From a virus, in IMG/VR virus record IMGVR_UViG_3300025855_000003: DNA of 34,094 nucleotides. One strand, given 5' to 3'. Position numbers and translations under genes: made by a program. Each line of letters opens with the position of its first letter. The stretch's first letter is position 1. Positions 4,686-26,224 of the stretch are shown here, piece by piece. The notes below the pieces were generated by a model, which worked only from the letters and a program-made list of their open reading frames with translations, was not told the origin of the DNA and did no database searches.

Positions 4686-4732
4686 AAAAAAAGCGGTCTT
4701 ATTTCTAAGACCGCCCTTTTCATGGTTACGGA
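4686..4732 (-). terminator. Conserved CGTAACC box + GC hairpin + U-tract element, copy A
   Basis: Minus strand reads tccgtaaccatgaaaa GGGCGGTCTTA gaaa TAAGACCGC ttttttt. The SD and tail-fibre ATG follow 19 nt later. Confidence 0.8.
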
Positions 4733-4752
4733 TTTCTTCTCTAAATTGACAC

Positions 4753-4786
4753 AAAAAAACCACAATAAAAAAAAACTATTGTGGTT
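4753..4786 (-). terminator. Intrinsic terminator hairpin downstream of the 661-aa gene (upstream hairpin of twin-hairpin module A)
   Basis: Minus strand reads aaccacaat-agttttttttt-attgtggtt followed by tttttt. Confidence 0.7.
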
Positions 4787-4837
4787 CGGTTCCAGTCAAC
4801 GCTGGAGAAGAACTGATAAATATAATATAGCAGACAT

Positions 4838-6823
4838 TTAATTTTTTCGCCATATGCTAGGACTCTTTTTAAATATATATGGACCACTAGACTGAATAGA
4901 TAAAAGCCTCCAATCATTTCCAACCCCATTGCTAGTTACACGATATTTAATTGCATAAAGTTTTTTTCTTGGTCTAACTACTTTTTTGACAGAAGAGCTT
5001 GAGAAAGTAGTTGGTAAATCCAAAGTATCGGAGAATAGCATGTCAGAAAAAGCATCATCACCAATACCAGAATTAGAAAAAGATGAACTAATTGTTTTAT
5101 TTCCAACAGATTTAATATCAGCTTTTTTGGTTCTACCAAGAACACTAGCTGTTAACGAACCCCTAACCTCACCAAATTCAAAAATTGTTTCTTTAACTCT
5201 AGCCTGGACTCTGTGGTCGCTGGCATCTATTGGAATTAGTGGTGAAACATACTGAGAAAACATTGGACCACTTAAATCTGATAAAGCATTTGGAGAAATC
5301 TCAATAATTTTGTTATCATTATTTCTAACTCCGAGCAAGTGCGTTGTTCCTGATGTGTCTGTATATTCCATCATTTGTTTAAAACCAATTGTCCAGGACC
5401 AATTCCAGTTTCTTTTTTCATCATCCCAGAGAAAAATTAAGTCATTTTCTTGACCCATTGGAACAGAGAACATGAGTTTTGGAGATGAATAATAACCAAT
5501 AGATTTATGTATTTGTGAGGCATTTAAAGACTCAAATCTGTTTCTAAGTGGAGCAATCATGTTGTCGGTAGATAAAACATTGAACAACTGCTCTTTATTT
5601 CTTAAAAAGAACACACCTTTTTTGTTCAAAAAAGCTACATTATCCCCAAACTTAGTTACTGATCCCACCGCATCAGTTCCAACAGAACCAACGAGTTTAT
5701 AGGCTACTGGAACAATAATGTTTACATCACCAACAGTGATATTACTTAATTCAATCTGAAAGATTGTGCCATTACCATCAGCAGAAGAACAAAGCACAGT
5801 TGCAATTGGATCACCTTTTCCAGTTCTATAATGGACTACCGTAATTGGATAGTATTTGCCACCTCTCTCCAAATCAACCCAAAATCCTCCGTAAAATGGA
5901 GAGAAATAACCTAAATACTGGCTCGTTCCAGTTCCATAAACTCTCCAAGGATTATTTTTATCCTTTGTGGCCCACATTCTGTTTCCAGAAAGTTCCATAG
6001 AACCAAAAAGAGGTGCTGAAGTAGTGTTGTCATCTGGAATATCTTGGAAAGAATTAGTTGGGGTGCCAATATCTCTAAAAGTAAGCTCAGTTGTTGATCC
6101 TAAGTATTTTTCTTTACCAGAAACATCTCCAAGCCAAATATCGTAGCTTTCTGCTCCATCGATAGGTGCTGGTACTGTATATTCAATATACTCATTACTG
6201 TCTTTATCCCAAGCCTCTCTTGGTTTATTAGCAGTTACTTCTAAAACAGGAGAAGGATTTGTCCAACCAACCGAGTTATTGGCAGTATAACGAACATAGT
6301 ATTTATAACTACCATCTGAAAGACCGGCTCCTCTTGCAAGAGTAGGTGCATCCTCTGGATCTTCAATTTCATCAAACGATGCAAAAACTGAACCTTCATA
6401 ATAAACTACTGGATCCAAACCATTGGAAATCCAGAGTTGATTTTTAAACTGAAGAGAAACAAATTGTTGTCCTGGTGTCCAAGTGGCTCCTGCAACTTCT
6501 GTCCAGGTTTTACCATTATTTGTGCTTTTGTAGCCTTTGCCATTAGTACAAATTGCGATCAATTCTCTGGTTTTGTCTTCCTTTGTATATTCAGCTAAAT
6601 GTTCAATGCCACCAACACCAGGAATTTCTTTTCCATAGTAAAGAGTGCCTGGTCTTGGACCCCAAATGCCATCTTCATATTGCATGATATTGACTGACTC
6701 TACTGCGTATCTAGTATTAGAGGGTTTTTTACCTAAGCGAGCGTCAGAAATCACTGTCATGGATCCACCATTAAAAACATCTAGATTGTTTCTCCATTCT
6801 CCTGGTGTTCTGTATCTCGACAT
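4838..6823 (-). CDS. Large tail protein, beta-propeller-like (nozzle / tail tubular B-like candidate)
   Basis: 661 aa with a BNR/Asp-box-like motif (STNNGKTWTEV) and repeated beta-rich segments. It sits between the adaptor-like gene and the fibre gene. Confidence 0.6.
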   Translation of the reverse strand: MSRYRTPGEWRNNLDVFNGGSMTVISDARLGKKPSNTRYAVESVNIMQYEDGIWGPRPGTLYYGKEIPGVGGIEHLAEYTKEDKTRELIAICTNGKGYKSTNNGKTWTEVAGATWTPGQQFVSLQFKNQLWISNGLDPVVYYEGSVFASFDEIEDPEDAPTLARGAGLSDGSYKYYVRYTANNSVGWTNPSPVLEVTANKPREAWDKDSNEYIEYTVPAPIDGAESYDIWLGDVSGKEKYLGSTTELTFRDIGTPTNSFQDIPDDNTTSAPLFGSMELSGNRMWATKDKNNPWRVYGTGTSQYLGYFSPFYGGFWVDLERGGKYYPITVVHYRTGKGDPIATVLCSSADGNGTIFQIELSNITVGDVNIIVPVAYKLVGSVGTDAVGSVTKFGDNVAFLNKKGVFFLRNKEQLFNVLSTDNMIAPLRNRFESLNASQIHKSIGYYSSPKLMFSVPMGQENDLIFLWDDEKRNWNWSWTIGFKQMMEYTDTSGTTHLLGVRNNDNKIIEISPNALSDLSGPMFSQYVSPLIPIDASDHRVQARVKETIFEFGEVRGSLTASVLGRTKKADIKSVGNKTISSSFSNSGIGDDAFSDMLFSDTLDLPTTFSSSSVKKVVRPRKKLYAIKYRVTSNGVGNDWRLLSIQSSGPYIFKKSPSIWRKN

Positions 6824-6824
6824 A

Positions 6825-7514: not shown

Positions 7515-7523
7515 AAAACCTTT

Positions 7524-13024: not shown

Positions 13025-14308
13025 TTAAGCCAAATAGTCTTCTCTAATCTTTTTAGCGGTAGCTAATGGGTTGTAAAACTCTGAAGAGTTCTTTTCTCCA
13101 ACTGGTTGAGAAGAGTTCAACATTTGAAGCTCGTTAAAAACGATGTCTCTTGGGTTAAAATTAGCTTTTCCAGATAATTCCAACTTGATATTATTTAATT
13201 CAGACATACGACTGGTTGCCCAATTTGCAATATCTGTTTGTCTTTGTCTGGTTTCTGCCTCGAGATTTCTTAAGTTAGCTGTTGCCTCAGATAATAAAGA
13301 CTGACTCAAACTAGCTAAATCTTTGGCCTTATCCAGAGGAGCATTGGCAATGGCGAATTGGATATTTTTAATTGCATTTCCGTAATACTCTTTAACTGAC
13401 TGGAGTTTTTGTTCTTTTTGGATTTCTGTATCTCTCCACATTTCACTAAACTGAAGTTCAGTGTCTTTTTCTTGCTGATCAATTTCAAAGAGTTGCTGAT
13501 TAGATTGGTTTCTAACCGAACCTTCTTGCTGACCTGCAATTTTGGTGTAGGCATATGGCATCATTACTTTGGATGCTGAAGTATCACCACCACCCATTGC
13601 TCCAAGTTGCATAGACATACCACGAACAACATTCGAAAGATTGTCTTGAAGTTCTTTTATTGAAGAAGTTTCTCTCTCTTTGACCTGATTACGATTAATA
13701 TCCAGTTTTTCCATGTTGGTTTTTTTCTGGTCTTCCAGGCCACCAAAAATCTGTTCATATACCTTAGAAGCAGAACTCAAATCCTCTTCTTGAGATTTGT
13801 TATAAGAAGTTTCTAAACCACCTAATTTCTTGACATATTCGTCATAACCAGTATTGATTTCGTTGCGAACCTGAGCCTCTCTATTAGAAGGATTATTTTG
13901 ATTTAAATAATCTTGATACTGATTCCAGTTGTCAAAGCCTAGTGATCGAGCATAATCATCTTTTTTTACTGGATTGGAAAGATCGACAGAAGAATCTGAA
14001 GCTGAAACATTGGTTTTAGTGTTTCCAGTGTTGCCTCCTGTATTTTTAACAACATCTGTTAAAAATGGACCATTTTGATTACCACTTGGCCACTCTTGAT
14101 TTTCCTGAGCATGCACTTTAGATGGTTGTGATGTGCCAAATAAGTTATTTACTATATTTGAATACTGACCACCAGTGGCAGAATTTATTTTATTGCCAGC
14201 TTGATAAAGCAATCCAGTTGATGGAGCATTTTTTATTGCCTGTTCGATTCCATAGCTACCTGGTAATATGCCTATTGCTCCTGCTATTACGTCTTTAATT
14301 AATGCCAT
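13025..14308 (-). CDS. Virion internal/structural protein, 427 aa
   Basis: It has a Gly-rich hydrophobic N-terminus (MALIKDVIAGAIGILPGSYG), a Gln/Asn/Glu-rich coiled-coil body and SD gaaagga. It lies directly upstream of the giant gene. Confidence 0.5.
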   Translation of the reverse strand: MALIKDVIAGAIGILPGSYGIEQAIKNAPSTGLLYQAGNKINSATGGQYSNIVNNLFGTSQPSKVHAQENQEWPSGNQNGPFLTDVVKNTGGNTGNTKTNVSASDSSVDLSNPVKKDDYARSLGFDNWNQYQDYLNQNNPSNREAQVRNEINTGYDEYVKKLGGLETSYNKSQEEDLSSASKVYEQIFGGLEDQKKTNMEKLDINRNQVKERETSSIKELQDNLSNVVRGMSMQLGAMGGGDTSASKVMMPYAYTKIAGQQEGSVRNQSNQQLFEIDQQEKDTELQFSEMWRDTEIQKEQKLQSVKEYYGNAIKNIQFAIANAPLDKAKDLASLSQSLLSEATANLRNLEAETRQRQTDIANWATSRMSELNNIKLELSGKANFNPRDIVFNELQMLNSSQPVGEKNSSEFYNPLATAKKIREDYLA

Positions 14309-14597: not shown

Positions 14598-14614
14598 TTT
14601 CTCCTTTTTAAAAC

Positions 14615-14661
14615 AAAAAAGCGGTCTTATTTCTAAGACCGCCCTTTATTTCGGTTACGGA
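14615..14661 (-). terminator. Conserved CGTAACC box + GC hairpin + U-tract element, copy B (orphan: no ORF follows)
   Basis: Minus strand reads tccgtaaccgaaataaa GGGCGGTCTTA gaaa TAAGACCGC tttttt gttttaaaaaggagaaatt. An AAA codon then occupies the position where copy A has its ATG. Confidence 0.75.
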
Positions 14662-14691
14662 TTGTTTAGTTGATCCCTAGCTTTTTGATAC

Positions 14692-14724
14692 AAAAAAAAC
14701 CGCACCAATAAACTATTGTGCGGT
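14692..14724 (-). terminator. Upstream hairpin of twin-hairpin module B
   Basis: Minus strand reads accgcacaat-agttt-attggtgcggt followed by tttttttt. Confidence 0.65.
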
Positions 14725-14820
14725 TCAGGACCAAGACAATGCTTGGGAAGAACTAAGTAACTATAACATGGGGTTTTTGCAAAAGTCAATAATAAGTGGT
14801 TTAATAAATAAAAGTTTAAA

Positions 14821-15926: not shown

Positions 15927-15936
15927 AACCCAAAAG

Positions 15937-16003
15937 GGTGAGGTGTCTCACGCTTCTGTAAGTTAACTTAGCGTTGTCGAAAGCATTGCTCTCTCACCTC
16001 ACC
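15937..16003. terminator. Large GC-clamped stem-loop between convergent genes (probable bidirectional terminator or structured RNA)
   Basis: ggtgaggtg (15937-15945) pairs with cacctcacc (15995-16003). An inner stem pairs acgct with agcgt (15950-15974). On the minus strand the structure is followed by cttttgggttt. Confidence 0.45.
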
Positions 16004-16046
16004 GAGAATTATACCAAATATGATATTGTTGTCAAACTAGCTGTAT

Positions 16047-16442: not shown

Positions 16443-16485
16443 AAAAAAAGCGAGCTATAAAGCTCGCCCTTGTTTATGGTTACGA
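16443..16485 (-). terminator. CGTAACC box + GC hairpin + U-tract element, copy C (variant stem)
   Basis: Minus strand reads atcgtaaccataaacaa GGGCGAGCT ttat AGCTCGC ttttttt. The SD (aaaggaa) and the ATG at 16424 follow. Confidence 0.75.
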
Positions 16486-16506
16486 TGGTTCTAGTATAGC
16501 ACAACC

Positions 16507-16535
16507 AAAAAAGGTGGCCTTTCGACCACCTTTTT
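16507..16535 (-). terminator. Intrinsic (bidirectional-looking) terminator just after the major capsid gene
   Basis: aaaaaggtgg-cctttcga-ccaccttttt, with T/A tracts on both sides, about 20 nt after the capsid gene stop at 16556. Confidence 0.75.
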
Positions 16536-16555: not shown

Positions 16556-17812
16556 CTAAGAAGTTATATCTAACTCAGCTTGCCCACTGATACGAATACC
16601 TAAGCGTGGATCGATGTTTTTAACACCATAGAGGACATCACATCTTGAAAGATGAGTGTCGTGTACGCCATCAGATATTCTCCAGAAACGAACACTGAGT
16701 CCAGTTTCTTTGTCGGTAGCAAAAGAGTAATTGCCACTTTCAGGAGCAACGAGCTTGGCACCAACCAAAGCGATAGAGCTACGATGGAAGATCGAGTTCT
16801 GTCGATAAGCGGTCGATGGATCACCAATAAAGGTTACTGGAGCTGAGTTTGCTGGAGCTGAAGTTACATTCTGGTAGGCACCAGTTGTGATGATTGGGTT
16901 AGCAATCGACACAGTAACTTTGCCATCAACACCGACTTCTTTGTCTGCTTGAACAACAAACATCTGTAAGTAACCAAGATCGGCTTTGTTAGCTGGGTTG
17001 ACTGCGTTTACACCTGCGATGGTGAAAACCTCACCAGCTTTAATAGTAGCTCCTGAAGCTAGACCCTTGAGTTTGAGGTCTTGAACATAGGTTGTTCTCA
17101 CAGTTTCATAAGCTACATTTTGACTGGCTCCGTCAACTTGACCAGCAGAAGAAGAAACACGAGTACCAGTAACCAAATTGATTACGTTTTGACTCATGTA
17201 AGCCTGGACATTACCAAGTAAAGGTAATTTGGCCTTCTCCAAAGCGGTTTTAACGGTTGAATCAGAGTTCAAACCAGTTAAACTTCCAGCTAATCCCCAA
17301 TAATCAGCAGGGGATAAAATACCAAAGCGATCATTGTTTGGAATGGATAACTCATCCATTCTTTGTGGACCAACAAAGAAATCTTTGGCACTGTCGATTG
17401 TTTCACCAGGAGTTCCAACCCAATGAGGGAACTTCAAGGTTTCAGCAACTATATCAGCATCAATCTGTTGGGCCAAAGCAGAGGCTTGGCTCTTCATGTT
17501 TTGATTTTTCAATAGTTCATCGACTTCCAAAGTAAGTTCTTTAGAGGTGAATTGAAGATCAACACCCTTCTGTTTGTCGATGGTAATATCAACAGAACCG
17601 GTTTTACTGTCTTGAACTTCGGCATCAGCACCATCACGGACTGTGTATTCCGGTGGTCTTCTAACTTTTACTGTATCGCCAACTGCAATTTGCTCACTTG
17701 AAAAATCTTTGTCGAATTTAGTATTGACGAGTTTGCCCATCACTAATTCATTTTTCAAAAGCAAAAGGAAAGCGTTAGCAACTTTTTGTGTGTTAACAAA
17801 TGAATTTGCCAT
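16556..17812 (-). CDS. Major capsid protein (HK97 fold, P22 coat-like)
   Basis: 418 aa located directly after the scaffold gene. From memory, the C-terminal stretch SRCDVLYGVKNIDPRLGIRISGQ resembles the P22 gp5 C-terminus ([24 protein letters not shown]). SD is aaggaaa. The gene is followed by two terminators, as expected for a highly expressed gene. Confidence 0.8.
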   Translation of the reverse strand: MANSFVNTQKVANAFLLLLKNELVMGKLVNTKFDKDFSSEQIAVGDTVKVRRPPEYTVRDGADAEVQDSKTGSVDITIDKQKGVDLQFTSKELTLEVDELLKNQNMKSQASALAQQIDADIVAETLKFPHWVGTPGETIDSAKDFFVGPQRMDELSIPNNDRFGILSPADYWGLAGSLTGLNSDSTVKTALEKAKLPLLGNVQAYMSQNVINLVTGTRVSSSAGQVDGASQNVAYETVRTTYVQDLKLKGLASGATIKAGEVFTIAGVNAVNPANKADLGYLQMFVVQADKEVGVDGKVTVSIANPIITTGAYQNVTSAPANSAPVTFIGDPSTAYRQNSIFHRSSIALVGAKLVAPESGNYSFATDKETGLSVRFWRISDGVHDTHLSRCDVLYGVKNIDPRLGIRISGQAELDITS

Positions 17813-17874: not shown

Positions 17875-18666
17875 TTAGGCTTTCGAGGAAAAGCCTTTTT
17901 CAAATTCTGAAAAGTCTTCCGTATTAGGGTCGGCCTTTTTAGAACTTCTTAGGCTTGTACTTATTGGAACAGCTTGATTCTGAGAAATTTCTTCTGAGTA
18001 TCTCTTGTTTGAAGTTGAATCAAACTCAGTAATACCATCGAGGTCTTTTTCTAGCTGACGAACAATTTCACTCATTTTTACAGCAGGAATAAATTCCTTT
18101 TTACCAGTAAGAGGATTAATTGCAGAATTAACTAACTCATACTGTTTGATAGCTAACTTTTCTAAGTGAGGCGGAACTTTCTCCGCCATACTCTCCAAGT
18201 CAGCTTGATGCTCTAAAACTGCGGACTTGTATTCATTGTTAAGTTGAGTAATTTTGTTAGATTTTTCAATCTGAGCAATTTTCTCTGAAACTTCAGCTTG
18301 AATGCGTTTTTGCACTCTTTCCTCAAAGCCCTCTGGATCCAAAGCTCCCTCTGCCCTCTCTTCTGGAGTAATCAGCGGAGTTTTAGAAATTTCTTTTGAA
18401 GGTGCCTTTTCTAGAACGGAATCAACGTTTGCTTGTCTTAATTTATTAAGAAGCTGGCCAACTCTTTTTTCAGCTCTAGTTGGTTTTTTCTGTTCCTCAT
18501 GATCTTCCTGATTTCCCTCAGGATTCTCATTCGAATGCTTTGTTTGTTCCTCATTTTGTTCTTGATTGGATTCTTCAATAATCCCATCATCAACTCGTGA
18601 ATTACTCTCTTCAGCAGGTGGCGTAACCTGCGAGGTCTGCAAGACCTCTTCATTTTGTTCTGCCAT
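17875..18666 (-). CDS. Scaffolding protein
   Basis: 263 aa, strongly acidic (Glu/Gln/Asn-rich N-terminus) and predicted helical/coiled coil. It lies between the portal-side genes and the capsid gene. Confidence 0.7.
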   Translation of the reverse strand: MAEQNEEVLQTSQVTPPAEESNSRVDDGIIEESNQEQNEEQTKHSNENPEGNQEDHEEQKKPTRAEKRVGQLLNKLRQANVDSVLEKAPSKEISKTPLITPEERAEGALDPEGFEERVQKRIQAEVSEKIAQIEKSNKITQLNNEYKSAVLEHQADLESMAEKVPPHLEKLAIKQYELVNSAINPLTGKKEFIPAVKMSEIVRQLEKDLDGITEFDSTSNKRYSEEISQNQAVPISTSLRSSKKADPNTEDFSEFEKGFSSKA

Positions 18667-18723
18667 AATGTTTTCTTTCTGACCACGCGTTTACTAGGGG
18701 TCGACCACTAGGTGTAACACAAC

Positions 18724-18771
18724 AAAAAAAGCGGTCTTATTTCTAAGACCGCCCTTAATTTCGGTTACGGA
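18724..18771 (-). terminator. Conserved CGTAACC box + GC hairpin + U-tract element, copy D
   Basis: Minus strand reads tccgtaaccgaaattaa GGGCGGTCTTA gaaa TAAGACCGC ttttttt, 57 nt upstream of the scaffold ATG. Confidence 0.8.
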
Positions 18772-18791
18772 TAACAAGTTCAATATATCAA

Positions 18792-19088
18792 TTATTTTTT
18801 TAATTGACAATCCTCAAAAATAGGAGTGCCATCTGCCATCTCTCCAATCATCCTTTTATCTCGAGGAATAAAAGTAGCATGAGGGAATGGACAAGAATTA
18901 CAAATCAATTGATTGCCTTTCTGTCGCCAATGATGAATTACTTTTTTGGCTTTGTCTAAAGCCTCATTGCGTATTCTTTCATATTCATGAGCTGAGATGC
19001 CTGGAATAACTGTTTCACCATCAAAAGGCAACTCTTTTTCCGGAGTTTCTTTTTGTTTTTCTGGTTGCTTTGAAAATTTATTCTTCAT
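18792..19088 (-). CDS. Hypothetical Cys/His-containing protein (98 aa from the ATG at 19088)
   Basis: The first ATG is M13 of the tracked ORF and overlaps the upstream stop by 11 nt. The protein contains HHW...CNSCPFPH...DC, a possible metal site. Confidence 0.55.
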   Translation of the reverse strand: MKNKFSKQPEKQKETPEKELPFDGETVIPGISAHEYERIRNEALDKAKKVIHHWRQKGNQLICNSCPFPHATFIPRDKRMIGEMADGTPIFEDCQLKK

Positions 19089-19401: not shown

Positions 19402-19556
19402 ATGGATTCAATCTCCCTTATTTCTTTTAATAAATTTCCTCTCTCTGAAGAGGAAAACTTTTTATATTGTTTTTCTGATCTAAGTTCTTTTTCTTGCTCT
19501 TTGACAAAATTGCGTTTTTTCTTAAATTTGAGTTTTTGATAATGTCTATCTTGCAT
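19398..19556 (-). CDS. Hypothetical very basic 52-aa protein (not in the ORF track)
   Basis: Translates as MQDRHYQKLKFKKKRNFVKEQEKELRSEKQYKKFSSSERGNLLKEIREIESI. It fills the portal-to-107-aa gap exactly, starting inside the last codons of the portal gene and ending in an ATGA overlap with the next gene. Confidence 0.45.
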   Translation of the reverse strand: MQDRHYQKLKFKKKRNFVKEQEKELRSEKQYKKFSSSERGNLLKEIREIESI

Positions 19557-21513
19557 TTCCTTGAGATATTTCTTGAAGTTCTTTCATTACTTCCGAAAAA
19601 GCCGGATCTTTGAAATCACCAATTGAAGAATTAGGGTTTGAATAATTAGCCGGTGGAGAGTAAGTAACTGGCGGATTAGAAGCACTAGGAACTACGCCAG
19701 GAGTTGATTGAGGTGGTGTGGTCGGTATTTCTTGAGCAGATGGAATATTATCTGGAGTATTTTGAGAAAACGCTGAGGGATTATTTTGTATTTCTTGCAA
19801 GATTTGTTTTACTAAACCTTGAACTTTTGGATCTTCTAGATTAAGAGGGTTTTCTCCATCTTCATTATTATCTGTGATAATTTTATCCCAATCGGATACA
19901 CCTGAAGAAATAACCCAACGTTTAATTAGTTCTCCAACATCAAGCGATTTATCACCAAGAGGAATCTTTCCACCTGAAGTTAAAGTGTCTAATGCACCAG
20001 GAATCTTCATCACAAAACCAATGATTTCTGTTAGAGTTTGGTTCTCCATGATCTCGTCTTTTTTGAGAGTAGAACCACGATCAATTTCATATCTGTATTC
20101 AACGTTGGCAATATCTTTGGGTTTGATTTTAACCATACCAGAATCGCCAGTTTCAAACATCTCAACAACGTCAGGAGCTACTTCTTTAACATTTAGAAGA
20201 TCTCTTTCTTTTAGATAGAGATTCATGGTTTTTTCTTGTTTTTTTGAAATTAAGTCAATCATTCTGTCAAAGACTTTTTCGATTCCGAGTTCGAGCATTC
20301 TTCGATCAAACTGAGTCTGCATTCCCTGAGTCATGGCTTGCATTTTCAAGGCTTGAGGAGTTTTTCCAAAACCAGGATCAACAGAGGAAGAAATGCTTGC
20401 ATCTGACGTTTGAGTAACTGTTAGCATCATTGCTTTTAAGAAGTTATATGTTGATTGAAACGCATCACTTGCTTGAGGAGAAACATTCATTTGAGCAACA
20501 CCATCAAAATTGCCTTTGCTCATTAGCCAAATCTGACCGGGCCCAATTCCATCTTTGAAATCATCCCAATTATCTACTGTGGAAGCATCAATCTTAAGTG
20601 GTGGGAAAATACCCATTTTAACACCATCCATGTATAAACTAATTAAACTACTTGAGGCAGAGTGAAGAGTCATTCCTCTTTCAAAATCGCCCAAGCCAAA
20701 GAATCTATCAATCAGAGGATATGAATGGCACATGATCACAGGGATTTTGCCATTCTTCTGAGGGTTAGGAATATCTCTCAATTCAAGATTGGAACCAGCG
20801 TGAAAAGTACGCCAGCGATCACCTTCATATCTAGAAATTAATTCAAATTCATCTTTTGTGGACATTGAGGTGTTGTCTTGTCTTTGAACAACACTTTGAG
20901 AATTTACATCACTTGGACCATCGCCTTTTGTTTTAAGAAGTTTATCAATGTTTTTCCAATACTTTTTATCTCTTGTTTCAAGCCATTTTTTGTTAACTCT
21001 GGATCTAATCCAAATATAATCGCTATCTTCAACTGTTGTTTTTCCAGATTGAGGAATAATATCTCTAGATGGTAAAAGAAAAAAATCTGGACCAGTATAG
21101 CCATTCTTGTTTGTTACAAAGTCAACTAAAACACCAAAAGAACCATAAACTTTTCTGTAAAAAGACCAAAGCCAAAGCTTTGTGAAGACATCAAATTGAG
21201 AAGTGGCATTTGGGATAACATGGTTATGTAGAATCAAATCCATGAATAAAGATTTGCCTTTATTTGCTTTAGTCATGGCAGTGATCTTGCCAGATGGCAT
21301 TTGTGCCATAATTTCATTGTTTTGTTTAAGAACTGAGGATAAAAGTGTTGGATCTGTTATTCTTGAGCTTGTTTCTTTTTGAGAAATCTGATCAACTGAT
21401 TGACTCATCAAAATGCGTTCTTTATCGTCAAAAGATTGATGAATTAAAGAAATAGCATCTAAATCTTTTCTGTATTCATCTAGAATTTCTTTTGTTTTAT
21501 CTGTTTCACTCAT
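19546..21513 (-). CDS. Portal protein
   Basis: 655 aa counted from MSETDK (ATG at 21513; the 7 upstream codons in the track run into the U-tract). Its size, its position just after the terminase genes (one small plus-strand ORF intervenes) and before the scaffold and capsid genes, and its Pro/Ser-rich C-terminal tail are typical of portals. Confidence 0.75.
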   Translation of the reverse strand: MSETDKTKEILDEYRKDLDAISLIHQSFDDKERILMSQSVDQISQKETSSRITDPTLLSSVLKQNNEIMAQMPSGKITAMTKANKGKSLFMDLILHNHVIPNATSQFDVFTKLWLWSFYRKVYGSFGVLVDFVTNKNGYTGPDFFLLPSRDIIPQSGKTTVEDSDYIWIRSRVNKKWLETRDKKYWKNIDKLLKTKGDGPSDVNSQSVVQRQDNTSMSTKDEFELISRYEGDRWRTFHAGSNLELRDIPNPQKNGKIPVIMCHSYPLIDRFFGLGDFERGMTLHSASSSLISLYMDGVKMGIFPPLKIDASTVDNWDDFKDGIGPGQIWLMSKGNFDGVAQMNVSPQASDAFQSTYNFLKAMMLTVTQTSDASISSSVDPGFGKTPQALKMQAMTQGMQTQFDRRMLELGIEKVFDRMIDLISKKQEKTMNLYLKERDLLNVKEVAPDVVEMFETGDSGMVKIKPKDIANVEYRYEIDRGSTLKKDEIMENQTLTEIIGFVMKIPGALDTLTSGGKIPLGDKSLDVGELIKRWVISSGVSDWDKIITDNNEDGENPLNLEDPKVQGLVKQILQEIQNNPSAFSQNTPDNIPSAQEIPTTPPQSTPGVVPSASNPPVTYSPPANYSNPNSSIGDFKDPAFSEVMKELQEISQGNAR

Positions 21514-21532: not shown

Positions 21533-21581
21533 AAAAAAAAGCGGTCTTATTTCTAAGACCGCCCTTAATTTCGGTTACGGA
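21533..21581 (-). terminator. Conserved CGTAACC box + GC hairpin + U-tract element, copy E
   Basis: Minus strand reads tccgtaaccgaaattaa GGGCGGTCTTA gaaa TAAGACCGC tttttttt gtgtcaaaaacaggatttt ATG (portal). Confidence 0.8.
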
Positions 21582-21616
21582 TATAGCCACCTTTATGGGT
21601 AACTATTTAAAGTATA

Positions 21617-21796
21617 TCACGAATAAAAAGAATGTGTAATACTACTGGATAATCTAAAGCCTCTTAAAGATATATCTAGCCTGACTGATTCAGAAATCGA
21701 AATTGCTTTTTTGTTTTTTTCTATCCAGTCATGCAACTGATCTATTCTTTTTTTCTCAAGTGATTCTTGATTTTGAACAGGTGTAGTATTAAGCAT
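21617..21796 (-). CDS. Hypothetical 59-aa ORF (weak)
   Basis: Translates as MLNTTPVQNQESLEKKRIDQLHDWIEKNKK... It has no SD and is one codon under the ORF-track cutoff, so it could be a chance ORF. Confidence 0.2.
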   Translation of the reverse strand: MLNTTPVQNQESLEKKRIDQLHDWIEKNKKAISISESVRLDISLRGFRLSSSITHSFYS

Positions 21797-21820
21797 TTGT
21801 CTGTTATAATTTAACTCAAA

Positions 21821-22156
21821 ATGAACAATTTAGCAACATATATTTCGCTTGATAATCTGCTACAAAACCTATCTCATGGCAAAGTTGAATTAGGACTCCA
21901 AGTGAGATCGGGATCTATTGTTTCAATGCTCGTTAGTGGCAAAAAAAGGCTTATTTATAACTCATCAAATAAAGACTTGAATACTAATCAAAAAGCCATA
22001 GAAGACATTGCTAGAAGGATCGTGCAACAACTAAAAAGCGGTGTTTCTAGTGAAATATCTTTCAAAATAAAGAACTTGGGAAATAAAATTAAATGGATTG
22101 AAATTGCCAGCGATCAAAACATTAATCTTAATAAAACTTCTTCATCTGTTGCATAA
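21821..22156 (+). CDS. Small opposite-strand protein, YezD/DUF2292-like N-terminal half (tentative)
   Basis: A 111-aa ORF fills the ~330-nt gap between TerL and portal on the opposite strand. The pattern LSHGKVELGLQVRSGSIVSMLVSGKKRL fits the 'G-x-V-x-h-x-V-x-x-G-x-h-V' signature I recall for YezD-like proteins. TATAAT (21805-21810) ends 10 nt before the ATG, and there is no SD. Confidence 0.5.
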   Translation: MNNLATYISLDNLLQNLSHGKVELGLQVRSGSIVSMLVSGKKRLIYNSSNKDLNTNQKAIEDIARRIVQQLKSGVSSEISFKIKNLGNKIKWIEIASDQNINLNKTSSSVA

Positions 22157-22790
22157 TGTTTTTTGCTACCTCTCTGGCCTTTGCCTGTTTTTCTGGTGAA
22201 GGGGGGAGAATAGGTCTTTCTGTCTGGTACATTTGCCAACCAATTGCCAAAGCCATTACTCCATCATCATGTTTGCCAGTAGAGGCTTGAGGTTTGCCAG
22301 TTCTGCTTTTAATAAATGTTTTGTGATGATCTAATAAATCTTGATCAAAGAAAGCAAAAGAATGAGAATCAAATTGACTTTTCCAATCGCCTGTTAAATA
22401 TGGCCTTGTTATAGAACTGGTTACCCAACCTAAGAGATTTGATTCCTCTTCTCCATCAATTTTGCCTCGATTTTTCATTACATAAAGCACATATTTATTC
22501 AATCTATTTAAAACTCTGAGTCTTTCCATTTCTGATGCACCACCATTATTTCTTTCAAAACCAACAACCGGAGGAACGCCAGTTAAATCAAACAAAAACT
22601 CCAAAGCTAAATGAATGTCTGGTGTCATGTCTGAGGCAACATCATTATTCCAATAAGTAATTGGTACATCAAGTTTGTTGTAGCTCATAAATGGAACGCA
22701 ATTTGAATCTCCACCACCTTGTGCGGTATCACCTGGAACAATAAAGAACTCTCCATATTCTATTTTTCTGAAGATTCTAAATTCTCCCAT
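22128..22790 (-). CDS. terL: Terminase large subunit, C-terminal RNase H-like nuclease domain (separate ORF)
   Basis: 220 aa with the acidic triad in the expected context: FIVPGDTAQGGGDSN, GFERNNGG, GKHDDGVMALAIG. It starts 14 nt before the stop of the ATPase ORF, in the +1 frame. Confidence 0.8.
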   Translation of the reverse strand: MGEFRIFRKIEYGEFFIVPGDTAQGGGDSNCVPFMSYNKLDVPITYWNNDVASDMTPDIHLALEFLFDLTGVPPVVGFERNNGGASEMERLRVLNRLNKYVLYVMKNRGKIDGEEESNLLGWVTSSITRPYLTGDWKSQFDSHSFAFFDQDLLDHHKTFIKSRTGKPQASTGKHDDGVMALAIGWQMYQTERPILPPSPEKQAKAREVAKNIMQQMKKFY

Positions 22791-23793
22791 AAATATCCTT
22801 TAGATTTGCTCCAACTATCAGAGGCTTCTTTATTAAACTTTGATAATACATAAGAGCTTCTTTGTTGAAATATGGATCTCCACCAAGCAAAAATGCTTCT
22901 GTGTCATAAGTTGGATATTCTCTTAACTCATCTAAATCAAACTCTTCATGATTTTTGGGGTTTCTAGTAGCGAGATGATGCCAATAGCATTGAGCCTTTG
23001 TAACTCCATACTCGACCATTATTTTGTTGTAATACTTTGGAACTATCCAATTAGGAGGTGGCTCTGTTGAGTATTCTTTATGCAACCACCAACTGAAGAA
23101 TCTGCTTTTATATCTGGCTCCTGGCAGTTTTCCGTTATCGTATTCAACTTGCCAATAATCACCAGTTAAATTTCCAGATGATTCTCTGAATATCTTGCCT
23201 GTGCCTGGTAGAACTTGCTTTTCTGCACCAGTTACCAGTTTTTTGGCATTCATTACTTCTGTGTTTGGATAGAAAGCAATCTCTGTAAAAAGAAGATTTT
23301 GCTTTGTACCACCACGACCTGACGTTTTGGCGTTAGCAGTAGCAGTGGAAAGAATAGATCCTTTGTTGCCTTCCATTTTCTGGCCAAGCTCATCAGATCT
23401 TAAATACATTTTTCTAAGTTTTGATAAATCCTGAGGATCATCTGTTTGAAAGTTTTTAATAAGCCATGAATTTAAAAAGTGGCTACATCTTGCAAAATGA
23501 ACATAAGTTTCTTCGTCTTTGTGAGAATAAATAACTGAATCAGTCAGGGGCATTTGACCAATTTCTGAAAGAATAAAATCAGTCATAAAAAAGCCAGCAA
23601 CCATTGTTGAGCCACCCCACTGACGAGCTTTGAGCCAATTTTCTCTTATGCCTTTAAAATCTGGATAATCTTTTTCTAGTTCTCTATAAACAAAGTTTTG
23701 TGTGTCATTGAAAATAAATGGAATTACTTCACCTTCTTTGTTAACTAGAGTAAAGTTTTCTTCAATAAATGCTTTGTAATCTACATATTGCAT
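22777..23793 (-). CDS. terL: Terminase large subunit, N-terminal ATPase domain (separate ORF)
   Basis: 338 aa from MQYVDY (ATG at 23793, SD aaggaaag). Walker A-like WLKARQWGGST and Walker B-like NLLFTEIAF are present. The ORF ends at TAG 22777. Confidence 0.8.
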   Translation of the reverse strand: MQYVDYKAFIEENFTLVNKEGEVIPFIFNDTQNFVYRELEKDYPDFKGIRENWLKARQWGGSTMVAGFFMTDFILSEIGQMPLTDSVIYSHKDEETYVHFARCSHFLNSWLIKNFQTDDPQDLSKLRKMYLRSDELGQKMEGNKGSILSTATANAKTSGRGGTKQNLLFTEIAFYPNTEVMNAKKLVTGAEKQVLPGTGKIFRESSGNLTGDYWQVEYDNGKLPGARYKSRFFSWWLHKEYSTEPPPNWIVPKYYNKIMVEYGVTKAQCYWHHLATRNPKNHEEFDLDELREYPTYDTEAFLLGGDPYFNKEALMYYQSLIKKPLIVGANLKDIYGRI

Positions 23794-23797
23794 TGCA

Positions 23798-24277
23798 TTA
23801 TCTTTCCTTGACGTATTTGGTCGAATTAAAGTTGAACTGTTGAAGTGGAGTAACAGGTGTTTGCGGAGAATCTGCCTCATTTGAGAGATTGCGACCGGCA
23901 ATTTTTTGCATGGCTTCCCAATAGCGAAAATCTGTTTTTGCTTTTTTGATGCCGATGTTATCCAATTTGGTTCTAACTATTGTCATTAAGTTTTTTCTTT
24001 CTTCTTCGTACCATTTGAGAAATCCAGGCTTTTTAATCCAGTCGTACCAGTTAGTTCTTTGTTGCCTACATTCCTTTGAAATTTCTGTGATGTTGTCTGT
24101 AACCAATTGTGCTGATGTAGCCACCCATAATCTCATTGCTGGAGTAGGTTTAAATGCCTCCTCTTCTGTTGGCATTACCGACAATTGCTTTGTATCAGTC
24201 TTTTTAGTTGCAACCTCACTTTTTATTTTTGAGATTATTGCTTTTGTGTTTGGTTTTGTTGGGCTTGGTTTTTGCAT
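23798..24277 (-). CDS. terS: Terminase small subunit (HTH-containing)
   Basis: 159 aa immediately upstream of TerL. It has a basic N-terminus and an HTH-like segment (TDNITEISKECRQQRTNWYDWIKKPGFLKWY). Confidence 0.65.
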   Translation of the reverse strand: MQKPSPTKPNTKAIISKIKSEVATKKTDTKQLSVMPTEEEAFKPTPAMRLWVATSAQLVTDNITEISKECRQQRTNWYDWIKKPGFLKWYEEERKNLMTIVRTKLDNIGIKKAKTDFRYWEAMQKIAGRNLSNEADSPQTPVTPLQQFNFNSTKYVKER

Positions 24278-24279
24278 AA

Positions 24280-25122
24280 TTACTTTTCAATTAAAATAAA
24301 TTGATCTAATGATTGGTCTGACTTAAAAATATATGGAAGTTGATTTTGCCATCCCATTTTTTGATAAAGTTTTGGAGTGAAATGGATTCCTTGCTGACCA
24401 ATGTAAAAACCACGATTAACAACTGCTGTCATTCTTTTGAACTTGGCTCTAAATAACGAAAAATCTTTGCCAGCATCTTGCGAACATTGAGTTTTGGTGA
24501 AATTATACTTTTTAAATAATTCTTGGATCTTTTCTCTGGGAATGTCTGAATAATCGACCTCTTCTATTAGCCTAAAATAGTCTTTGAAATACTCTTTGGC
24601 TATCTTCCATCGTCTGGAAATATAGCATTCTGCCCACCAATGAGTTTCTGCAAAAATTACTTTGTTAAGGGTTTTTTCTGTTGGCTTAGATAACTTCTTA
24701 AAGTTTAAATTAAAAGAATGAAGATCACTTCTATTGCCAAACTGATCGATTAGAACCCGGCATAGTCTAAAATAATCGGGAGAGAGTAAAACATCATCTT
24801 CAATTACCAAAAAATAGTCATATAAAGAAGACATTATTTCGTTAGCAGTAAATTGGTTTCTACCATTACCAACGTTTTGATCAACTCTTAAAATACTTCC
24901 GCCTTTGTCTAAATTTGATGATTTAAAAATAGAAATTGACTGCTCGATGTCTTCTTTTTTAGCTTTAATCTTTCCGGAAAATATATTTTTAAACCCATCT
25001 TGGAACAAATGAAATTTTGTGTTTTCTAAATACGATTGTTGTTCTAATGAATTAATTACTCTAGAAAGATATTTTGGTCTATTAAATGAAATGATGGCGA
25101 CTCCGATTTTGCCTTTATACAT
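24280..25122 (-). CDS. GT-A fold glycosyltransferase (GT2-like)
   Basis: IGVAIISFNRPKYLSRVINSLEQQ forms the N-terminal nucleotide-sugar-binding strand and helix, and FLVIEDDVLLSPDYF is a DxD-type motif. The ATG at 25122 is preceded by ggagg; the tracked start at 25128 is TTG. Confidence 0.75.
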   Translation of the reverse strand: MYKGKIGVAIISFNRPKYLSRVINSLEQQSYLENTKFHLFQDGFKNIFSGKIKAKKEDIEQSISIFKSSNLDKGGSILRVDQNVGNGRNQFTANEIMSSLYDYFLVIEDDVLLSPDYFRLCRVLIDQFGNRSDLHSFNLNFKKLSKPTEKTLNKVIFAETHWWAECYISRRWKIAKEYFKDYFRLIEEVDYSDIPREKIQELFKKYNFTKTQCSQDAGKDFSLFRAKFKRMTAVVNRGFYIGQQGIHFTPKLYQKMGWQNQLPYIFKSDQSLDQFILIEK

Positions 25123-26164
25123 TTTCAAAAACCTCCTTTACCCTTTTGATCATTGCTTTAAAATCAAACATTGTTTTCTCTTCCTCAAAAGCTCTTTGAT
25201 ACAAACATTGATTTAATTTGAGGGCTAAATCTTTATGATTGTTGAAGCTGGCAAAATATATGTTCTTCGCACCTGAAAAATTAGCAATCTCTCTCATAGT
25301 CGGATAGTTATAACAAACAACTGGTGTACCACAGGCAATTGCTTCCGCCATCCAAATGCCAAATCCTTCAAAGATTGCTCCGTTGATCATGACTGAGGCA
25401 CCTCTTATAAGTTCGAACTTTTCTTTTTCAGTGGCATTAAAATAAAAATCTGTCTGCTTATCCATTCGATAAGCCCGAACAATTTTCTTATAATCTATCT
25501 CCGATATAGAAGTGATAACTTTTAATCTTAAATTATTTTGTCTGCACGCCCATACAACGTGATCAAACTTTTTATTATGCACAAGCCTGGAAACAAAAAC
25601 TGCATAATTGTTTCTGTCTGGCTTCTTTGATTTTTTCTTAGCTTCAGAGTTTATGCTTGGATAAATTGGGAGCAATTGATCATCTGTTTTATTAAGCCAA
25701 TTATAGATGTATGGATGAGTTGCGTGGCACAAAGTGATTATTTTTACAGCAGGTTCTTTTAAAAGATTGGTTAGCTCAAGCCATCCACGAAAAGTTTTTT
25801 TCTTTAAGAATTTATAGATCATTGGTAAAGGATCAAAAAGTATTGGAAAGGCTTGTTTTTTGTACTTTAAAGCGTTTTTAATGGCACAAACATCACCATA
25901 AATTGGTGATCCAATATAAACATCAGCTTTGATTTTTAGAAAAGAAAGTTCTTTTTGAGTACAATCATGGACCACAAGTTTTGGCTTCTTATATGCTGAG
26001 AAGTAATTAAAAAATGTTGGCTCTGCGTTGGTGTGAATTGTTACATCGAAACCAGCTTCTTTTAAAGCAACTGCAATCATCCAAGAATAATATCTACCAC
26101 CGGTTAAATGGTTGTTATTCTCCGTTATTACAACAAATTTTTTCTTTTTATTGCTCGTTTTCAT
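25115..26164 (-). CDS. GT-B fold glycosyltransferase (GT4/GT1-like)
   Basis: It carries the E-x7-E motif in context: GASVMINGAIFEGFGIWMAEAIACGTPVV. The start is taken at MKTSNKKKKFVV (26164); the 7 upstream codons in the track read through the hairpin. Confidence 0.8.
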   Translation of the reverse strand: MKTSNKKKKFVVITENNNHLTGGRYYSWMIAVALKEAGFDVTIHTNAEPTFFNYFSAYKKPKLVVHDCTQKELSFLKIKADVYIGSPIYGDVCAIKNALKYKKQAFPILFDPLPMIYKFLKKKTFRGWLELTNLLKEPAVKIITLCHATHPYIYNWLNKTDDQLLPIYPSINSEAKKKSKKPDRNNYAVFVSRLVHNKKFDHVVWACRQNNLRLKVITSISEIDYKKIVRAYRMDKQTDFYFNATEKEKFELIRGASVMINGAIFEGFGIWMAEAIACGTPVVCYNYPTMREIANFSGAKNIYFASFNNHKDLALKLNQCLYQRAFEEEKTMFDFKAMIKRVKEVFENV

Positions 26165-26224
26165 AAAAAAAGCGACCACTCTCAAGTAAATGAGAAATGG
26201 TCGCCTAACTTCAATTAGTTACGA
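26165..26224 (-). terminator. CGTAAC box + hairpin + U-tract element, copy F (variant stem), directly abutting the GT-B ATG
   Basis: Minus strand reads tcgtaactaattgaagttag GCGACCAtttctcatttacttgagagTGGTCGC ttttttt ATG. The box begins right after the stop of the 55-aa ORF. Confidence 0.7.

Follow-up and report, generated by a model that had tools for sequence, protein, structure and literature searches.

The window analysed here is a 34,094-nt stretch of DNA (IMGVR_UViG_3300025855_000003) from an uncultured temperate phage. It carries six minus-strand copies of an element composed of a CGTAAC(C/T) box, an A-rich spacer of 7-10 nt, a GC hairpin and a run of six to eight T residues, and these copies precede late-gene blocks (Table 1). 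All six were found at the places and on the strand given in an initial annotation of this DNA. The strict pattern CGTAACN{6,16}GGGCG matched five times, each time at one of these places on the minus strand, compared with 0.01 expected matches, and none of 100 shuffled sequences reached five. The window contains eight CGTAAC hexamers, six of which are part of element copies. Some details had to be revised: four copies have C and two have T at the base 5' of the box, which had been described as T or A; the spacer from the box to the GGG stem base, given as 8-13 nt, measures 7-8 nt (10 nt in copy 6); and the T-run, given as seven or eight residues, can be as short as six.

Table 1. Coordinates of the cassettes and of the two related small ORFs in the window
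Feature	Coordinates	Strand	Details
Copy 1 cassette	4686..4832	-	Covariance model 72.6 bits
Copy 1 promoter	4829-4824 (hexamer)	-	Extended -10, TGcTATATT
Copy 1 T1	4784-4753	-	Weak box-less terminator
Copy 1 box	4730-4724	-	Followed by terminator, T7, RBS
Copy 1 target	ATG at 4667	-	Tail-fibre gene
Copy 2 cassette	14615..14789	-	Covariance model 73.5 bits
Copy 2 promoter	14789-14760	-	TTGACT-18-TGtTATAGT
Copy 2 T1	14723-14692	-	Box-less terminator
Copy 2 box	14659-14653	-	Followed by terminator, T6, ghost RBS
Copy 3 cassette	16443..16530	-	Covariance model 59.8 bits
Copy 3 T1	16530-16507	-	3' of coat gene
Copy 3 promoter	16498-16493 (hexamer)	-	Extended -10, TGcTATACT
Copy 3 box	16484-16478	-	Followed by terminator GGGCGAGCT-TTAT-AGCTCGC, T7
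Copy 3 target	ATG at 16424	-	SAP/HeH protein gene
Copy 4 cassette	18724..18810	-	Covariance model 78.6 bits; fold -20.4 kcal/mol
Copy 4 promoter	18810-18782	-	TTGTCA-17-TGaTATATT
Copy 4 box	18769-18763	-	Followed by terminator, T7
Copy 4 target	ATG at 18666	-	Scaffold gene, after conserved 57-nt leader
Copy 5 cassette	21533..21640	-	Covariance model 73.8 bits
Copy 5 promoter	21616-21611 (hexamer)	-	Extended -10, TGaTATACT
Copy 5 extra hairpin	about 21605-21584	-	TAGTTACC/GGTGGCTA
Copy 5 box	21579-21573	-	CGTAACC, followed by terminator GGGCGGTCTTA-GAAA-TAAGACCGC, T8
Copy 5 target	ATG at 21513	-	Portal gene
Copy 6	26165..26224	-	Covariance model 21 bits, E = 0.007
Copy 6 box	26223-26217	-	CGTAACT within TCGTAACT, followed by 10-nt spacer, long hairpin AGGCGACCA...TGGTCGC, T7
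Copy 6 target	ATG at 26164	-	GT4 glycosyltransferase gene
55-aa protein ORF	26225..26392	-	MNEKLNN...HITTFPE; stop included, abuts copy-6 box
59-aa paralog of the 55-aa protein	21617..21796	-	Stop included; 40% identity, E = 1e-8

As had been noted, the stem-loop GGGCGGTCTTA-GAAA-TAAGACCGC is identical in the copies at 4686-4732, 14615-14661, 18724-18771 and 21533-21581, and the stems of copies 3 and 6 differ from it. The four identical copies are a product of gene conversion and hence do not constitute independent evidence. Copy 6, at the early/late junction, is diverged (TCGTAACT, AGGCGACC..., long stem), yet it was recovered by the covariance model and folds at -24.3 kcal/mol (z = -4.5); an ortholog with the box CGTTACT occupies the same position in the related contig L002 (3838-3896). 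The L002 ortholog of copy 5 has compensated stems in both of its hairpins. The covariance model revealed no further convincing copy in the window, including the early region at 26.3-34 kb. The distance from the element to the late-gene RBS is 0-57 nt, except for copy 2 (~300 nt). Copy 2 had been regarded as an orphan, but it lies upstream of a 427-aa gene (13025-14308), the first in a block encoding proteins of 427, 1827, 229 and 661 aa, and it represents a duplicate of ~170 nt of the copy-1 region, ghost RBS included.

The element is conserved across 13 related contigs. In an alignment of 17 copies, 98% of the cells were paired, six of ten pairs had changed on both sides and G-U pairs were present; the observed pairing score was attained by none of 500 shuffles. 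Six representative copies folded at -16.6 to -24.3 kcal/mol with z of about -4. On the late-gene sense strand, selection maintains the terminator as an RNA hairpin. This bears out the earlier view that a terminator stands before the late genes, so that it must somehow be bypassed. The box is conserved far above the stems (T3 in 34/34 copies, A5 and C6 in 33/34 each, C7 in 32/34). Box, spacer length (7-10 nt, mode 8) and the GGGC stem base are conserved features, and the stems vary with compensatory changes. The consensus reads wAU-CGUAACC-RAAnnAAR, then GGGC as the 5' stem base, and U5-9 with a mode of seven. A search of 2.9 million viral contigs with the strict pattern gave one true match, and the element was absent from coat relatives at ≤51% identity. 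Judged from these comparisons, the element is clade-restricted.

Copies 1-5 each possess a sigma-70-type promoter within 8-95 nt of the box. Promoters were called from a -10 hexamer with A2, T6 and at least four of six matches, plus TG or a good -35. By this measure, 28 of the 34 copies in the 13 related contigs had a -10 hexamer ending 7-16 nt 5' of the box, whereas shuffled controls averaged 3.6 such copies and never exceeded 9. Many of the cassette promoters conform to TTGACA-17/18-TAnnnT. A -10 hexamer at this distance places the box at or near the 5' end of a leader RNA of ~45-65 nt that ends in the terminator. The -10-to-box distance is nevertheless variable (7-16, about 30 or about 95 nt, or no promoter at all), and in the window copy 6 alone lacks a promoter. 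The initial annotation had pictured polymerase from the early region as meeting six stops; given the promoters of copies 1-5, only copy 6 would be reached from upstream. A box-less terminator, T1, lies upstream of copies 1-3. The order T1, promoter, box-terminator (T2) 3' of the coat gene was observed in the window, L002, L120, L118 and L138 and also in L162, L163, L166 and L170. A constitutive T2 would leave the promoter between T1 and T2 pointless. The first reading had described neither the promoters of copies 1-5 nor T1 at copies 1-3, nor that copy 6 adjoins the stop of a small ORF.

We propose, with a probability of roughly 0.5, that repeated promoter-proximal conditional terminators, linked to the box, gate each late transcription unit. 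A host-type (sigma-70/sigma-A-like) promoter would fire a transcript starting at or just upstream of the box, and its leader would comprise, in this order, the box, the A-rich spacer of 7-10 nt, a strong intrinsic terminator and the RBS of the late-gene block. By default, an RNA of 45-65 nt would be made and the late block would stay silent, a state that suits the near-consensus late promoters of a temperate phage. Late expression would require that the hairpin be prevented or ignored. We infer conditional read-through, brought about by a conserved trans factor that recognises the single-stranded box in the nascent RNA, beside the 5' strand of the stem. This factor would act locally, cassette by cassette, and at the early/late junction the promoterless copy 6 would serve the same function.

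Among the three ideas of the initial annotation, antitermination fared best, but the gating probably acts on each terminator by itself and not processively. T1, which lies between promoter and box in copies 1 and 2 and would need a general bypass, is not accounted for by a strictly box-dependent local mechanism. Such a bypass would be provided by processive antitermination as in Q, AlpA, N or put systems, in which a factor or the leader RNA modifies polymerase for all later terminators. A constitutive-looking promoter, a promoter-proximal terminator and late genes are the defining layout of Q cassettes (10.1101/651190) and AlpA targets (PMC7969949). The lambdoid Q cassette (Q gene, PR', QBE, sigma-dependent pause element, tR', late genes) is similar in layout: as at lambda PR'-tR', an intrinsic terminator stands shortly after a constitutive-looking host-type promoter and keeps polymerase from the late genes, the default product is a short terminated RNA, and a small gene lies directly upstream of the first cassette. 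However, the phage described here has six cassettes, against one in the lambdoid system, and its conserved element goes with the terminator and not with the promoter: the box is at no fixed promoter distance, and copy 6 has no promoter. The consensus also contains no conserved -10-like pause element. Moreover, if polymerase were modified processively, equipping each block with its own box-less terminator, promoter and box-terminator would be superfluous. Neither a Q, N or NusG-like gene in the window, as the initial annotation had also noted for N and Q, nor an Rfam match to the element was found. Processive action is quite unlikely. AlpA of Pseudomonas aeruginosa is a small regulator that lets RNA polymerase bypass intrinsic terminators that stand immediately before lysis-type operons at two or more loci (PMC7969949, PMC9371919), and the placement of terminators is similar here. 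In contrast, AlpA binds to a DNA element located between -35 and -10, and its bypass does not depend on the terminator (PMC7969949, PMC9371919), whereas our box is found 3' of the -10 and keeps a fixed spacing to the hairpin; an AlpA-type winged-helix protein was not detected.

In a sister subclade, the portal leaders of L118, L162, L163, L166, L168, L169 and L170 kept the promoter and a variant of the box (GTAATCC, CATAACC, CATAGCC or GATAACC), followed by a hairpin without U-tract. This hairpin pairs the AUG in five of the six leaders folded, and in several it also pairs an SD-like stretch. Box variants thus precede two kinds of hairpin, one of them translational, which points to an RNA-level operator. 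These variants are left unexplained if the element is a constitutive leaky attenuator that trims the output of strong promoters and insulates the blocks, with a 5' hairpin protecting read-through mRNA and the box as an RNase or 5'-end determinant, all without regulated antitermination. The hairpin lies 0-57 nt before the start codon and would indeed stay at the 5' end of the read-through mRNA. An A-rich single strand before a stable hairpin resembles described RNase Y determinants, and L164/L165 manage with bare promoters. On the other hand, the folding energies of the six representative copies (-16.6 to -24.3 kcal/mol) and the T-run mode of seven look like those of efficient terminators, a weaker promoter would give the same tuning, and it is left unexplained why a 7-mer should be nearly invariant and fixed in its spacing to the stem. 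We regard this account as unlikely.

The leader could also be a product in itself: strong promoter, conserved 5' single strand and terminator hairpin with U-tail are the anatomy of a small-RNA gene, and StxS is a functional small RNA arising from early termination at a phage late promoter (PMC7547250). Multi-copy phage RNAs of 45-65 nt with the 5' seed CGUAACC would then act on host or phage targets or titrate an RNA-binding protein, and late-gene read-through would be secondary. Against this, each copy is followed by a late-gene RBS (after 0-57 nt, or ~300 nt in the case of copy 2), copy 6 is promoterless, the portal variants swap the terminator for a start-codon-occluding hairpin, and the complement GTTACG occurs on the sense strand of the window only twice (18622, 32906), making this reading very improbable.

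For conditional gating, the partner of the box has to be sought among conserved phage proteins or host factors, as early regions are not conserved among element carriers. Two of the three ORFs proposed earlier as coding for trans-acting factors, 30340..30690 (the basic protein) and 33798..34025, were covered by a test of early-region proteins (27-34 kb), and none of the proteins tested had a homolog in any of 12 related element-carrying loci. The only protein family that tracked presence and absence of the element was that of the 55-aa protein (46 clusters), a candidate trans factor on this ground; the co-absence comes from one lineage, L164/L165, represented by partial contigs. In this lineage, whose coat protein is 63% identical to that of the window and so as close as those of other relatives, promoters occur at the same three sites, and both the box-terminator and the 55-aa gene are missing. 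Encoded immediately upstream of the first cassette, its stop one base before the copy-6 box, the 55-aa protein is the best factor candidate, albeit a doubtful one. It is not basic, had no Pfam, PHROG or fold match and was modelled as a helix plus beta-hairpin (pLDDT 72). Its gene occupies the terminase-portal slot, a frequent location of genes for small structural proteins, and an adjoining 102/111-aa protein weakly resembles phage neck proteins. The 59-aa paralog ORF ends inside the copy-5 promoter.

Local control, one terminator at a time, is known from BglG/LicT-RAT, HutP and ANTAR systems, in which the cis site directly precedes the 5' strand of the terminator stem or overlaps with it. Similarly, GGGC stem base and box are conserved here and the rest of the stem drifts. 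However, neither an alternative antiterminator structure nor a CAT/PRD, HutP or ANTAR domain was found, and the present system is phage-borne and repeated before structural genes. The LoaP leader of Bacillus velezensis also presents a small conserved RNA element, required for antitermination, ahead of an intrinsic terminator in a 5' leader (PMC12691694), and with its sigma-A-type promoters the present context is Gram-positive-like as well. LoaP itself, however, is a paralog of NusG whose RNA element is a hairpin, whereas a single-stranded 7-mer occurs here and the window yielded no KOW or NusG-like gene. The likeness to lambda nut (boxA + boxB) and HK022 put drawn in the initial annotation is, as for Tn916 canT (PMC11658703), limited to the succession of box and hairpin in the nascent RNA, ahead of genes that require read-through. 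In those systems the hairpin is not a terminator and either its loop (nut) or its two-stem fold (put) shows conservation; in the present element the hairpin serves as the terminator and is followed by a U-tract, loops vary, and neither a boxA-like sequence, a constant two-stem structure nor anything in Rfam was found.

Finally, the box overlaps or adjoins the predicted start site in 28 copies, as would befit a DNA-level element, either an operator for a repressor or activator or a linker for module exchange like the PeSLs of T4. Recombination at the cassettes is evident from the ~170-nt duplication of copies 1 and 2 with its ghost RBS and from the four homogenised copies, and gene content between cassettes is mosaic among relatives. 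Yet the box is non-palindromic, its distance is fixed to the hairpin and not to the promoter, and it is kept without a promoter in copy 6 and the L002 ortholog; G-U pairs and compensatory changes in the stem matter only in RNA, and recombination accounts for spread but not for conserved anatomy. A DNA-level element is improbable as the main reading. T4 PeSLs share the repeated promoter and stem-loop at gene-block borders and recombination between copies, but they flank small early ORF cassettes and lack a conserved box at fixed spacing, whereas the repeats described here head late structural operons and are under RNA-structure selection. PeSL-like recombination and the definition of processed mRNA ends, the two other ideas of the initial annotation, may be secondary roles of the cassettes.

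All six copies of the box-hairpin-T-run element described in the initial annotation were confirmed at their positions on the minus strand, i.e. in the sense orientation of the late genes (see table). The pattern CGTAACN{6,16}GGGCG occurred 5 times in the window compared with 0.01 occurrences expected. Copy 6 had diverged, yet it was recovered by a covariance model built from the other copies, and its ortholog was present at the same place in one relative. The covariance model, a check that the initial annotation had proposed, also detected the element in all twelve related contigs at the same sites, i.e. before the portal gene, before the scaffold gene, and after the coat gene. Further convincing copies were not found with this model in the window, and none were found in the early region. 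The order of box, hairpin, and T-run was as originally described, but the base preceding the box was C or T, the spacer measured 7-10 nt, and the T-run comprised 6-8 residues. Copy 2, formerly regarded as an orphan, is located ~300 nt ahead of the gene for a 427-aa protein that heads a large tail/internal-protein block.

Coordinates of element copies, leaders, and genes in the window and in related loci
Feature	Sequence	Coordinates	Strand
Copy 1 (before tail fibre gene)	window	4686-4732	minus
Copy 2 (before 427-aa block)	window	14615-14661	minus
Copy 3 (before SAP/HeH gene)	window	16443-16485	minus
Copy 4 (before scaffold gene)	window	18724-18771	minus
Copy 5 (before portal gene)	window	21533-21581	minus
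Copy 6 (before GT4 glycosyltransferase gene)	window	26165-26224	minus
Paralogous region of copy 1	window	4640-4830	minus
Paralogous region of copy 2	window	14570-14760	minus
Scaffold leader, copy-4 terminator to scaffold ATG	window	18664-18723	minus
Integrase	window	284-1213	plus
P22-type coat protein	window	16556-17812	
Portal	window	19546-21513	
55-aa ORF	window	26228-26392	minus
59-aa paralog of 55-aa protein	window	21620-21796	minus
111-aa gene (102/111-aa family), adjoining a 55-aa family gene	window	21821-22156 (region 21803-22156)	plus
Terminase slot	window	22128-24277	minus
Transcription unit past SAP/HeH gene	window	15930-16035	minus
ORF converging with this unit	window	15510-15926	plus
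Portal leader, terminator replaced	L118	6370-6440	
Portal leader, terminator replaced	L162	10740-10812	
Portal leader, terminator replaced	L163	8808-8883	
Portal leader, terminator replaced	L166	10169-10235	
Portal leader, terminator replaced	L168	2888-2955	
Portal leader, terminator replaced	L170	9150-9296	

Anatomical features were counted in 34 copies, whereas covariation statistics were derived from 17 copies and folding energies from six. The 34-copy consensus was wAT-CGTAACC-RAAnnAAR-GGGC. The box was almost invariant (T3 in 34/34, A5 in 33/34, C6 in 33/34, and C7 in 32/34 copies), its distance to the stem was 7-10 nt, mostly 8, and the T-run had 5-9 residues with a mode of 7. The stems varied among genomes as well as among copies with pairing kept: in the 17 copies, 98% of cells were paired, six of the 10 stem pairs were changed on both sides, and the observed covariation score was matched by none of 500 shuffles. 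The GGGC at the 5' base of the stem was conserved, the stem interior drifted, and G-U pairs marked the RNA strand. Hairpin loops were variable (GAAA, UUAU, UAUA, GAGA, GCUUAAA, and others), and a second hairpin was seen only in copy 5 and in its ortholog in the related contig L002. The six folded copies had energies of -16.6 to -24.3 kcal/mol. A compensated GC-rich hairpin with an immediate U-tract on the sense strand defines the element as an intrinsic terminator. The element is thus a genuine feature that is conserved and under selection. Its box, (U/C)CGUAACC(G), e.g. at 18763-18770, resembles two stretches near the 3' end of 16S rRNA, UCGUAAC and GGUAACCG (1492R primer region); as the box is a 7-mer, this likeness may well be due to chance.

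Five of the six window copies (copies 1-5) proved to have a host-type promoter of their own, which had been missed before. In copies 3 and 4, an extended -10 or a -35/-10 pair ends 8 and 12 nt ahead of the box. Copy 5 has TGaTATACT ~30 nt upstream of the box and a small extra hairpin in between, and in copies 1 and 2 the extended -10 promoter lies ~95 nt upstream, and the leader contains a second, box-less terminator (T1). Copy 6 is the only one lacking a promoter; the early operon ends there in a small ORF, and the box of copy 6 starts one base past its stop codon. A sigma-70-type -10 ended 7-16 nt before the box in 28 of the 34 copies, compared with a mean of 3.6 and a maximum of 9 for shuffled upstream sequences. 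With this spacing, the box marks the 5' end of a leader RNA of 45-65 nt or lies close to that end. After the coat gene, the recurrent order was box-less terminator, promoter, box, terminator, and RBS. The box is coupled to the hairpin rather than to the promoter. As the promoters of the late blocks are followed almost at once by terminators, the earlier picture of a polymerase that enters from the early region and must stop six times is wrong and is contradicted by the promoters of copies 1-5.

The best-supported interpretation is that the elements form a set of promoter-proximal conditional terminators. In the prophage state, a terminator placed a few dozen nucleotides beyond each strong host-type promoter would render it harmless, and a late unit would open once hairpin formation was prevented. 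A constitutive attenuator combined with a 5' stabiliser remains as an alternative, as does the production of functional small RNAs, for which StxS from PR' provides an example (PMC7547250). A truly processive mechanism also remains among the rivals; it is disfavored by the fact that terminator, promoter, and box recur at each block.

DNA-level roles, including that of recombination linkers, likewise remain. The regions of copies 1 and 2 are paralogs of ~170 nt that share leader, T1, box, terminator, and RBS. In copy 2, the RBS AAAAAGGAGAAATT is retained but no start codon follows; this ghost RBS records a recombination event by which a whole cassette was moved. In addition, four window copies are identical (homogenised), and the gene blocks between cassettes are mosaic among the relatives. 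The duplication and the homogenised copies favor recombination as a side effect. T4 PeSL cassettes consist of a repeated promoter and stem-loop at the borders of exchangeable cassettes, an arrangement to which the present elements may be akin; RNA-level selection and a fixed box are features foreign to PeSLs.

With respect to known antitermination systems, one likeness was to the lambdoid Q cassette, in which a sigma-70 promoter and a promoter-proximal terminator precede the late genes, as they do here in 28 of 34 copies (3.6 expected) and in window copies 1-5. The logic of a promoter silenced by a downstream terminator is shared by lambda PR'-tR' and by AlpA (10.1101/651190, PMC7969949). Unlike the Q-binding element, which stands at a fixed promoter distance, the box was found 7-16, ~30, or ~95 nt from the -10 or without any promoter, and the CGTAACC-RAAnnAAR consensus contains no conserved TAnnnT (-10-like hexamer) as in the Q cassette pause element. 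A Q-family protein was not found in early and junction ORFs by Pfam and PHROG scans, and an AlpA-like protein was not found either. Membership in the Q/AlpA group therefore fails. The scans agreed with the initial annotation in revealing no N- or Q-like gene, and no arginine-rich N-like protein was matched.

The proposed analogy to nut and put sites did not hold. The box is unrelated in sequence to lambda boxA (CGCUCUUA-like). In contrast to boxB, a non-terminator with a conserved GNRA-like loop, the loops vary and the hairpin is followed by a U-tract. put, EAR, and canT are larger conserved multi-stem RNAs without a terminator, whereas the single hairpin here is the terminator. Rfam at E <= 1 yielded sub-threshold noise only, i.e. 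the Moco riboswitch at 30.3 bits versus a gathering score of 36 and an L20 leader match confined to the terminator. NusG or KOW family proteins of the RfaH-ops or LoaP type were absent from all scanned window ORFs, and the ops-like GGGCGGT was limited to the four homogenised copies. The nearest functional analogy is offered by the leader-RNA-dependent LoaP system (PMC12691694) together with attenuation-type RNA-binding antiterminators, though proteins of neither type are present and no known antiterminator domain was found. In attenuation-type systems, a protein binds at a site adjoining or overlapping the 5' side of the terminator stem; the box, a putative binding site, is spaced 7-10 nt from a stem whose GGGC 5' base is conserved while its interior drifts. 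Thinking of antitermination in view of terminators before late genes was thus a reasonable instinct, but the specific analogies and candidate factors were unsupported.

Relatives were sought with the coat protein, a 102-aa protein, and the 55-aa protein as queries. The twelve contigs recovered had coat identities of 63-75% and GC contents of 38-45%; in more distant, mostly high-GC coat relatives, the coat gene was followed by a plain terminator alone. The strict pattern gave one true match in 2.9 million viral contigs, showing that the element is specific to this clade; a degenerate pattern returned >100 one-off chance matches and was uninformative. In seven relatives, the promoter was retained in the portal leader together with a variant of the box (GTAATCC, CATAACC, CATAGCC, or GATAACC), but the hairpin that follows had no U-tract. 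This hairpin paired the start codon and neighboring bases in five of six folded leaders and in several also a Shine-Dalgarno-like stretch; in L168, AUGGCUAU is paired by the box variant itself. Inhibitory hairpins of two kinds are thus preceded by box variants, a situation most easily understood if the box is read in RNA. In the L164/L165 lineage, whose coat protein is as close to that of the window as other relatives' coats, good promoters were kept at the three sites named above, whereas box, terminator, and 55-aa gene were all absent.

Homologs of the tested early-region proteins were not found in any related locus, although several of these span 8-10 kb of early region. The basic 116-aa protein (30340..30690) and the product of 33798..34025, both put forward as trans-acting factors, are accordingly not supported, and the partner of the box must be a host component or a conserved phage protein. 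The only conserved phage protein whose distribution follows the element is the 55-aa family: element and gene occurred together in 13 contigs and were both missing from one lineage (L164/L165). The gene always ends directly ahead of a cassette. In the window and L002, genes of this family precede copies 6 and 5; in other relatives, the gene is located between the terminase genes and the portal cassette. The protein belongs to no Pfam or PHROG family and is not basic; its model, a helix plus beta-hairpin (pLDDT 72), gave no structural match in a fold search. It is therefore kept as a candidate trans factor only. Homology of the 55-aa family to the neighboring 102/111-aa family was unsupported (hhalign probability 0.5%). 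The 102/111-aa protein is also encoded in the element-less lineage, and the 111-aa model shows two helix-plus-long-beta-hairpin repeats with a weak match to phage neck and tail-terminator proteins. In the window, L002, and L164, the 111-aa gene runs opposite to all late genes, whereas it points the same way in the other relatives. An extended -10 promoter of its own, TGtTATAAT, lies only ~9 nt ahead of the ATG, which makes the mRNA nearly leaderless.

The conditional terminators could operate as a cassette-wise late switch, previously undescribed, to which we assign about one chance in five. The 5'-proximal single-stranded box (AUCGUAACC-RAA) in the RNA would be recognized by the 55-aa helix-plus-beta-hairpin protein or a different conserved factor, which would locally block formation of the adjacent hairpin. 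The same protein-box pair would switch on transcription at the terminator hairpins of some late units and translation at the start-codon-occluding hairpins of others, without a processive change of RNA polymerase. Late control in temperate phages is known mainly via Q, N, Ogr/C-type activators, and phage sigma factors. The present clade appears to place strong host-type promoters before every structural block and to shut off each of them with a separate boxed terminator. Should read-through depend on the box, promoter, box, terminator, and regulator would form a compact, portable set with a new kind of antitermination partner, of use in annotating uncultured phages and as a synthetic-biology switch.

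Other readings were rejected. An ECF-type or phage-sigma promoter with GTAACC as -35 and the -10 in GGGCGR would leave only 11-12 bp from AAC to CG, and inspection revealed varying stems and no conserved -10 at 16-17 bp. For an N4-like hairpin promoter read by a virion RNA polymerase, the 1827-aa protein of the virion block gave no PHROG, Pfam, or PDB-sequence match. Antisense control from the inverted 111-aa gene was dismissed because its transcript, owing to its own promoter and near-leaderless start, does not cross copy 5. Alternative antiterminator pairing of the box with the stem found no complementarity that survived stem variation on inspection.

A second conserved motif was seen in the scaffold leader: GG(A/T)CGAC(A/C)C in a small hairpin with a variable stem, followed after ~12 nt by G(G/A)GTCAG. 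It was present in 14 of 14 genomes (window, L002, L118, L120, L123, L138, L162-L164, and L166-L170), including L164, which has no box-terminator. RNAalifold paired only GAC with GTC and detected no covariation. Autoregulation has been reported for the P22 scaffolding protein, and by analogy the motif may be an operator for scaffold autoregulation.

The window is a ~34-kb temperate, podovirus-like phage with 35% GC, strong AGGAG-type ribosome-binding sites, a CHAP-domain lysin, and glycosyltransferase genes with which the late region begins; hardly any of the early region (26.3-34 kb) is annotated. A near-identity search found no close relative among cultured phages, and the coat protein retrieved only Vibrio-type podophages at <=33% identity. 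The contig of L118 (JACRBJ010000081.1, 143 kb) was assigned to a Chloroflexi MAG with 54% GC in its name, whereas the 21-kb locus of the related prophage has 40% GC, which makes the host assignment of the clade uncertain. In the terminase slot, where relatives encode Pfam-recognisable small and large terminases, the window has ORFs of 159, 374, and 220 aa without Pfam hits. They are homologous to two-ORF arrangements of L138, L162, L168, and L169, and the packaging module is apparently of a different, split, or highly diverged type. Finally, a moron-like insert at 14.8-16.0 kb, absent from the relatives, contains a perfect promoter (TTGACA-16-TGgTATAAT) just past the SAP/HeH gene. It drives a region of ~70 nt in which GGTGAGGTG pairs with CACCTCACC, followed by CTTTTGGGTTTT. 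This unit converges on a plus-strand ORF and could be a small-RNA or antisense gene.
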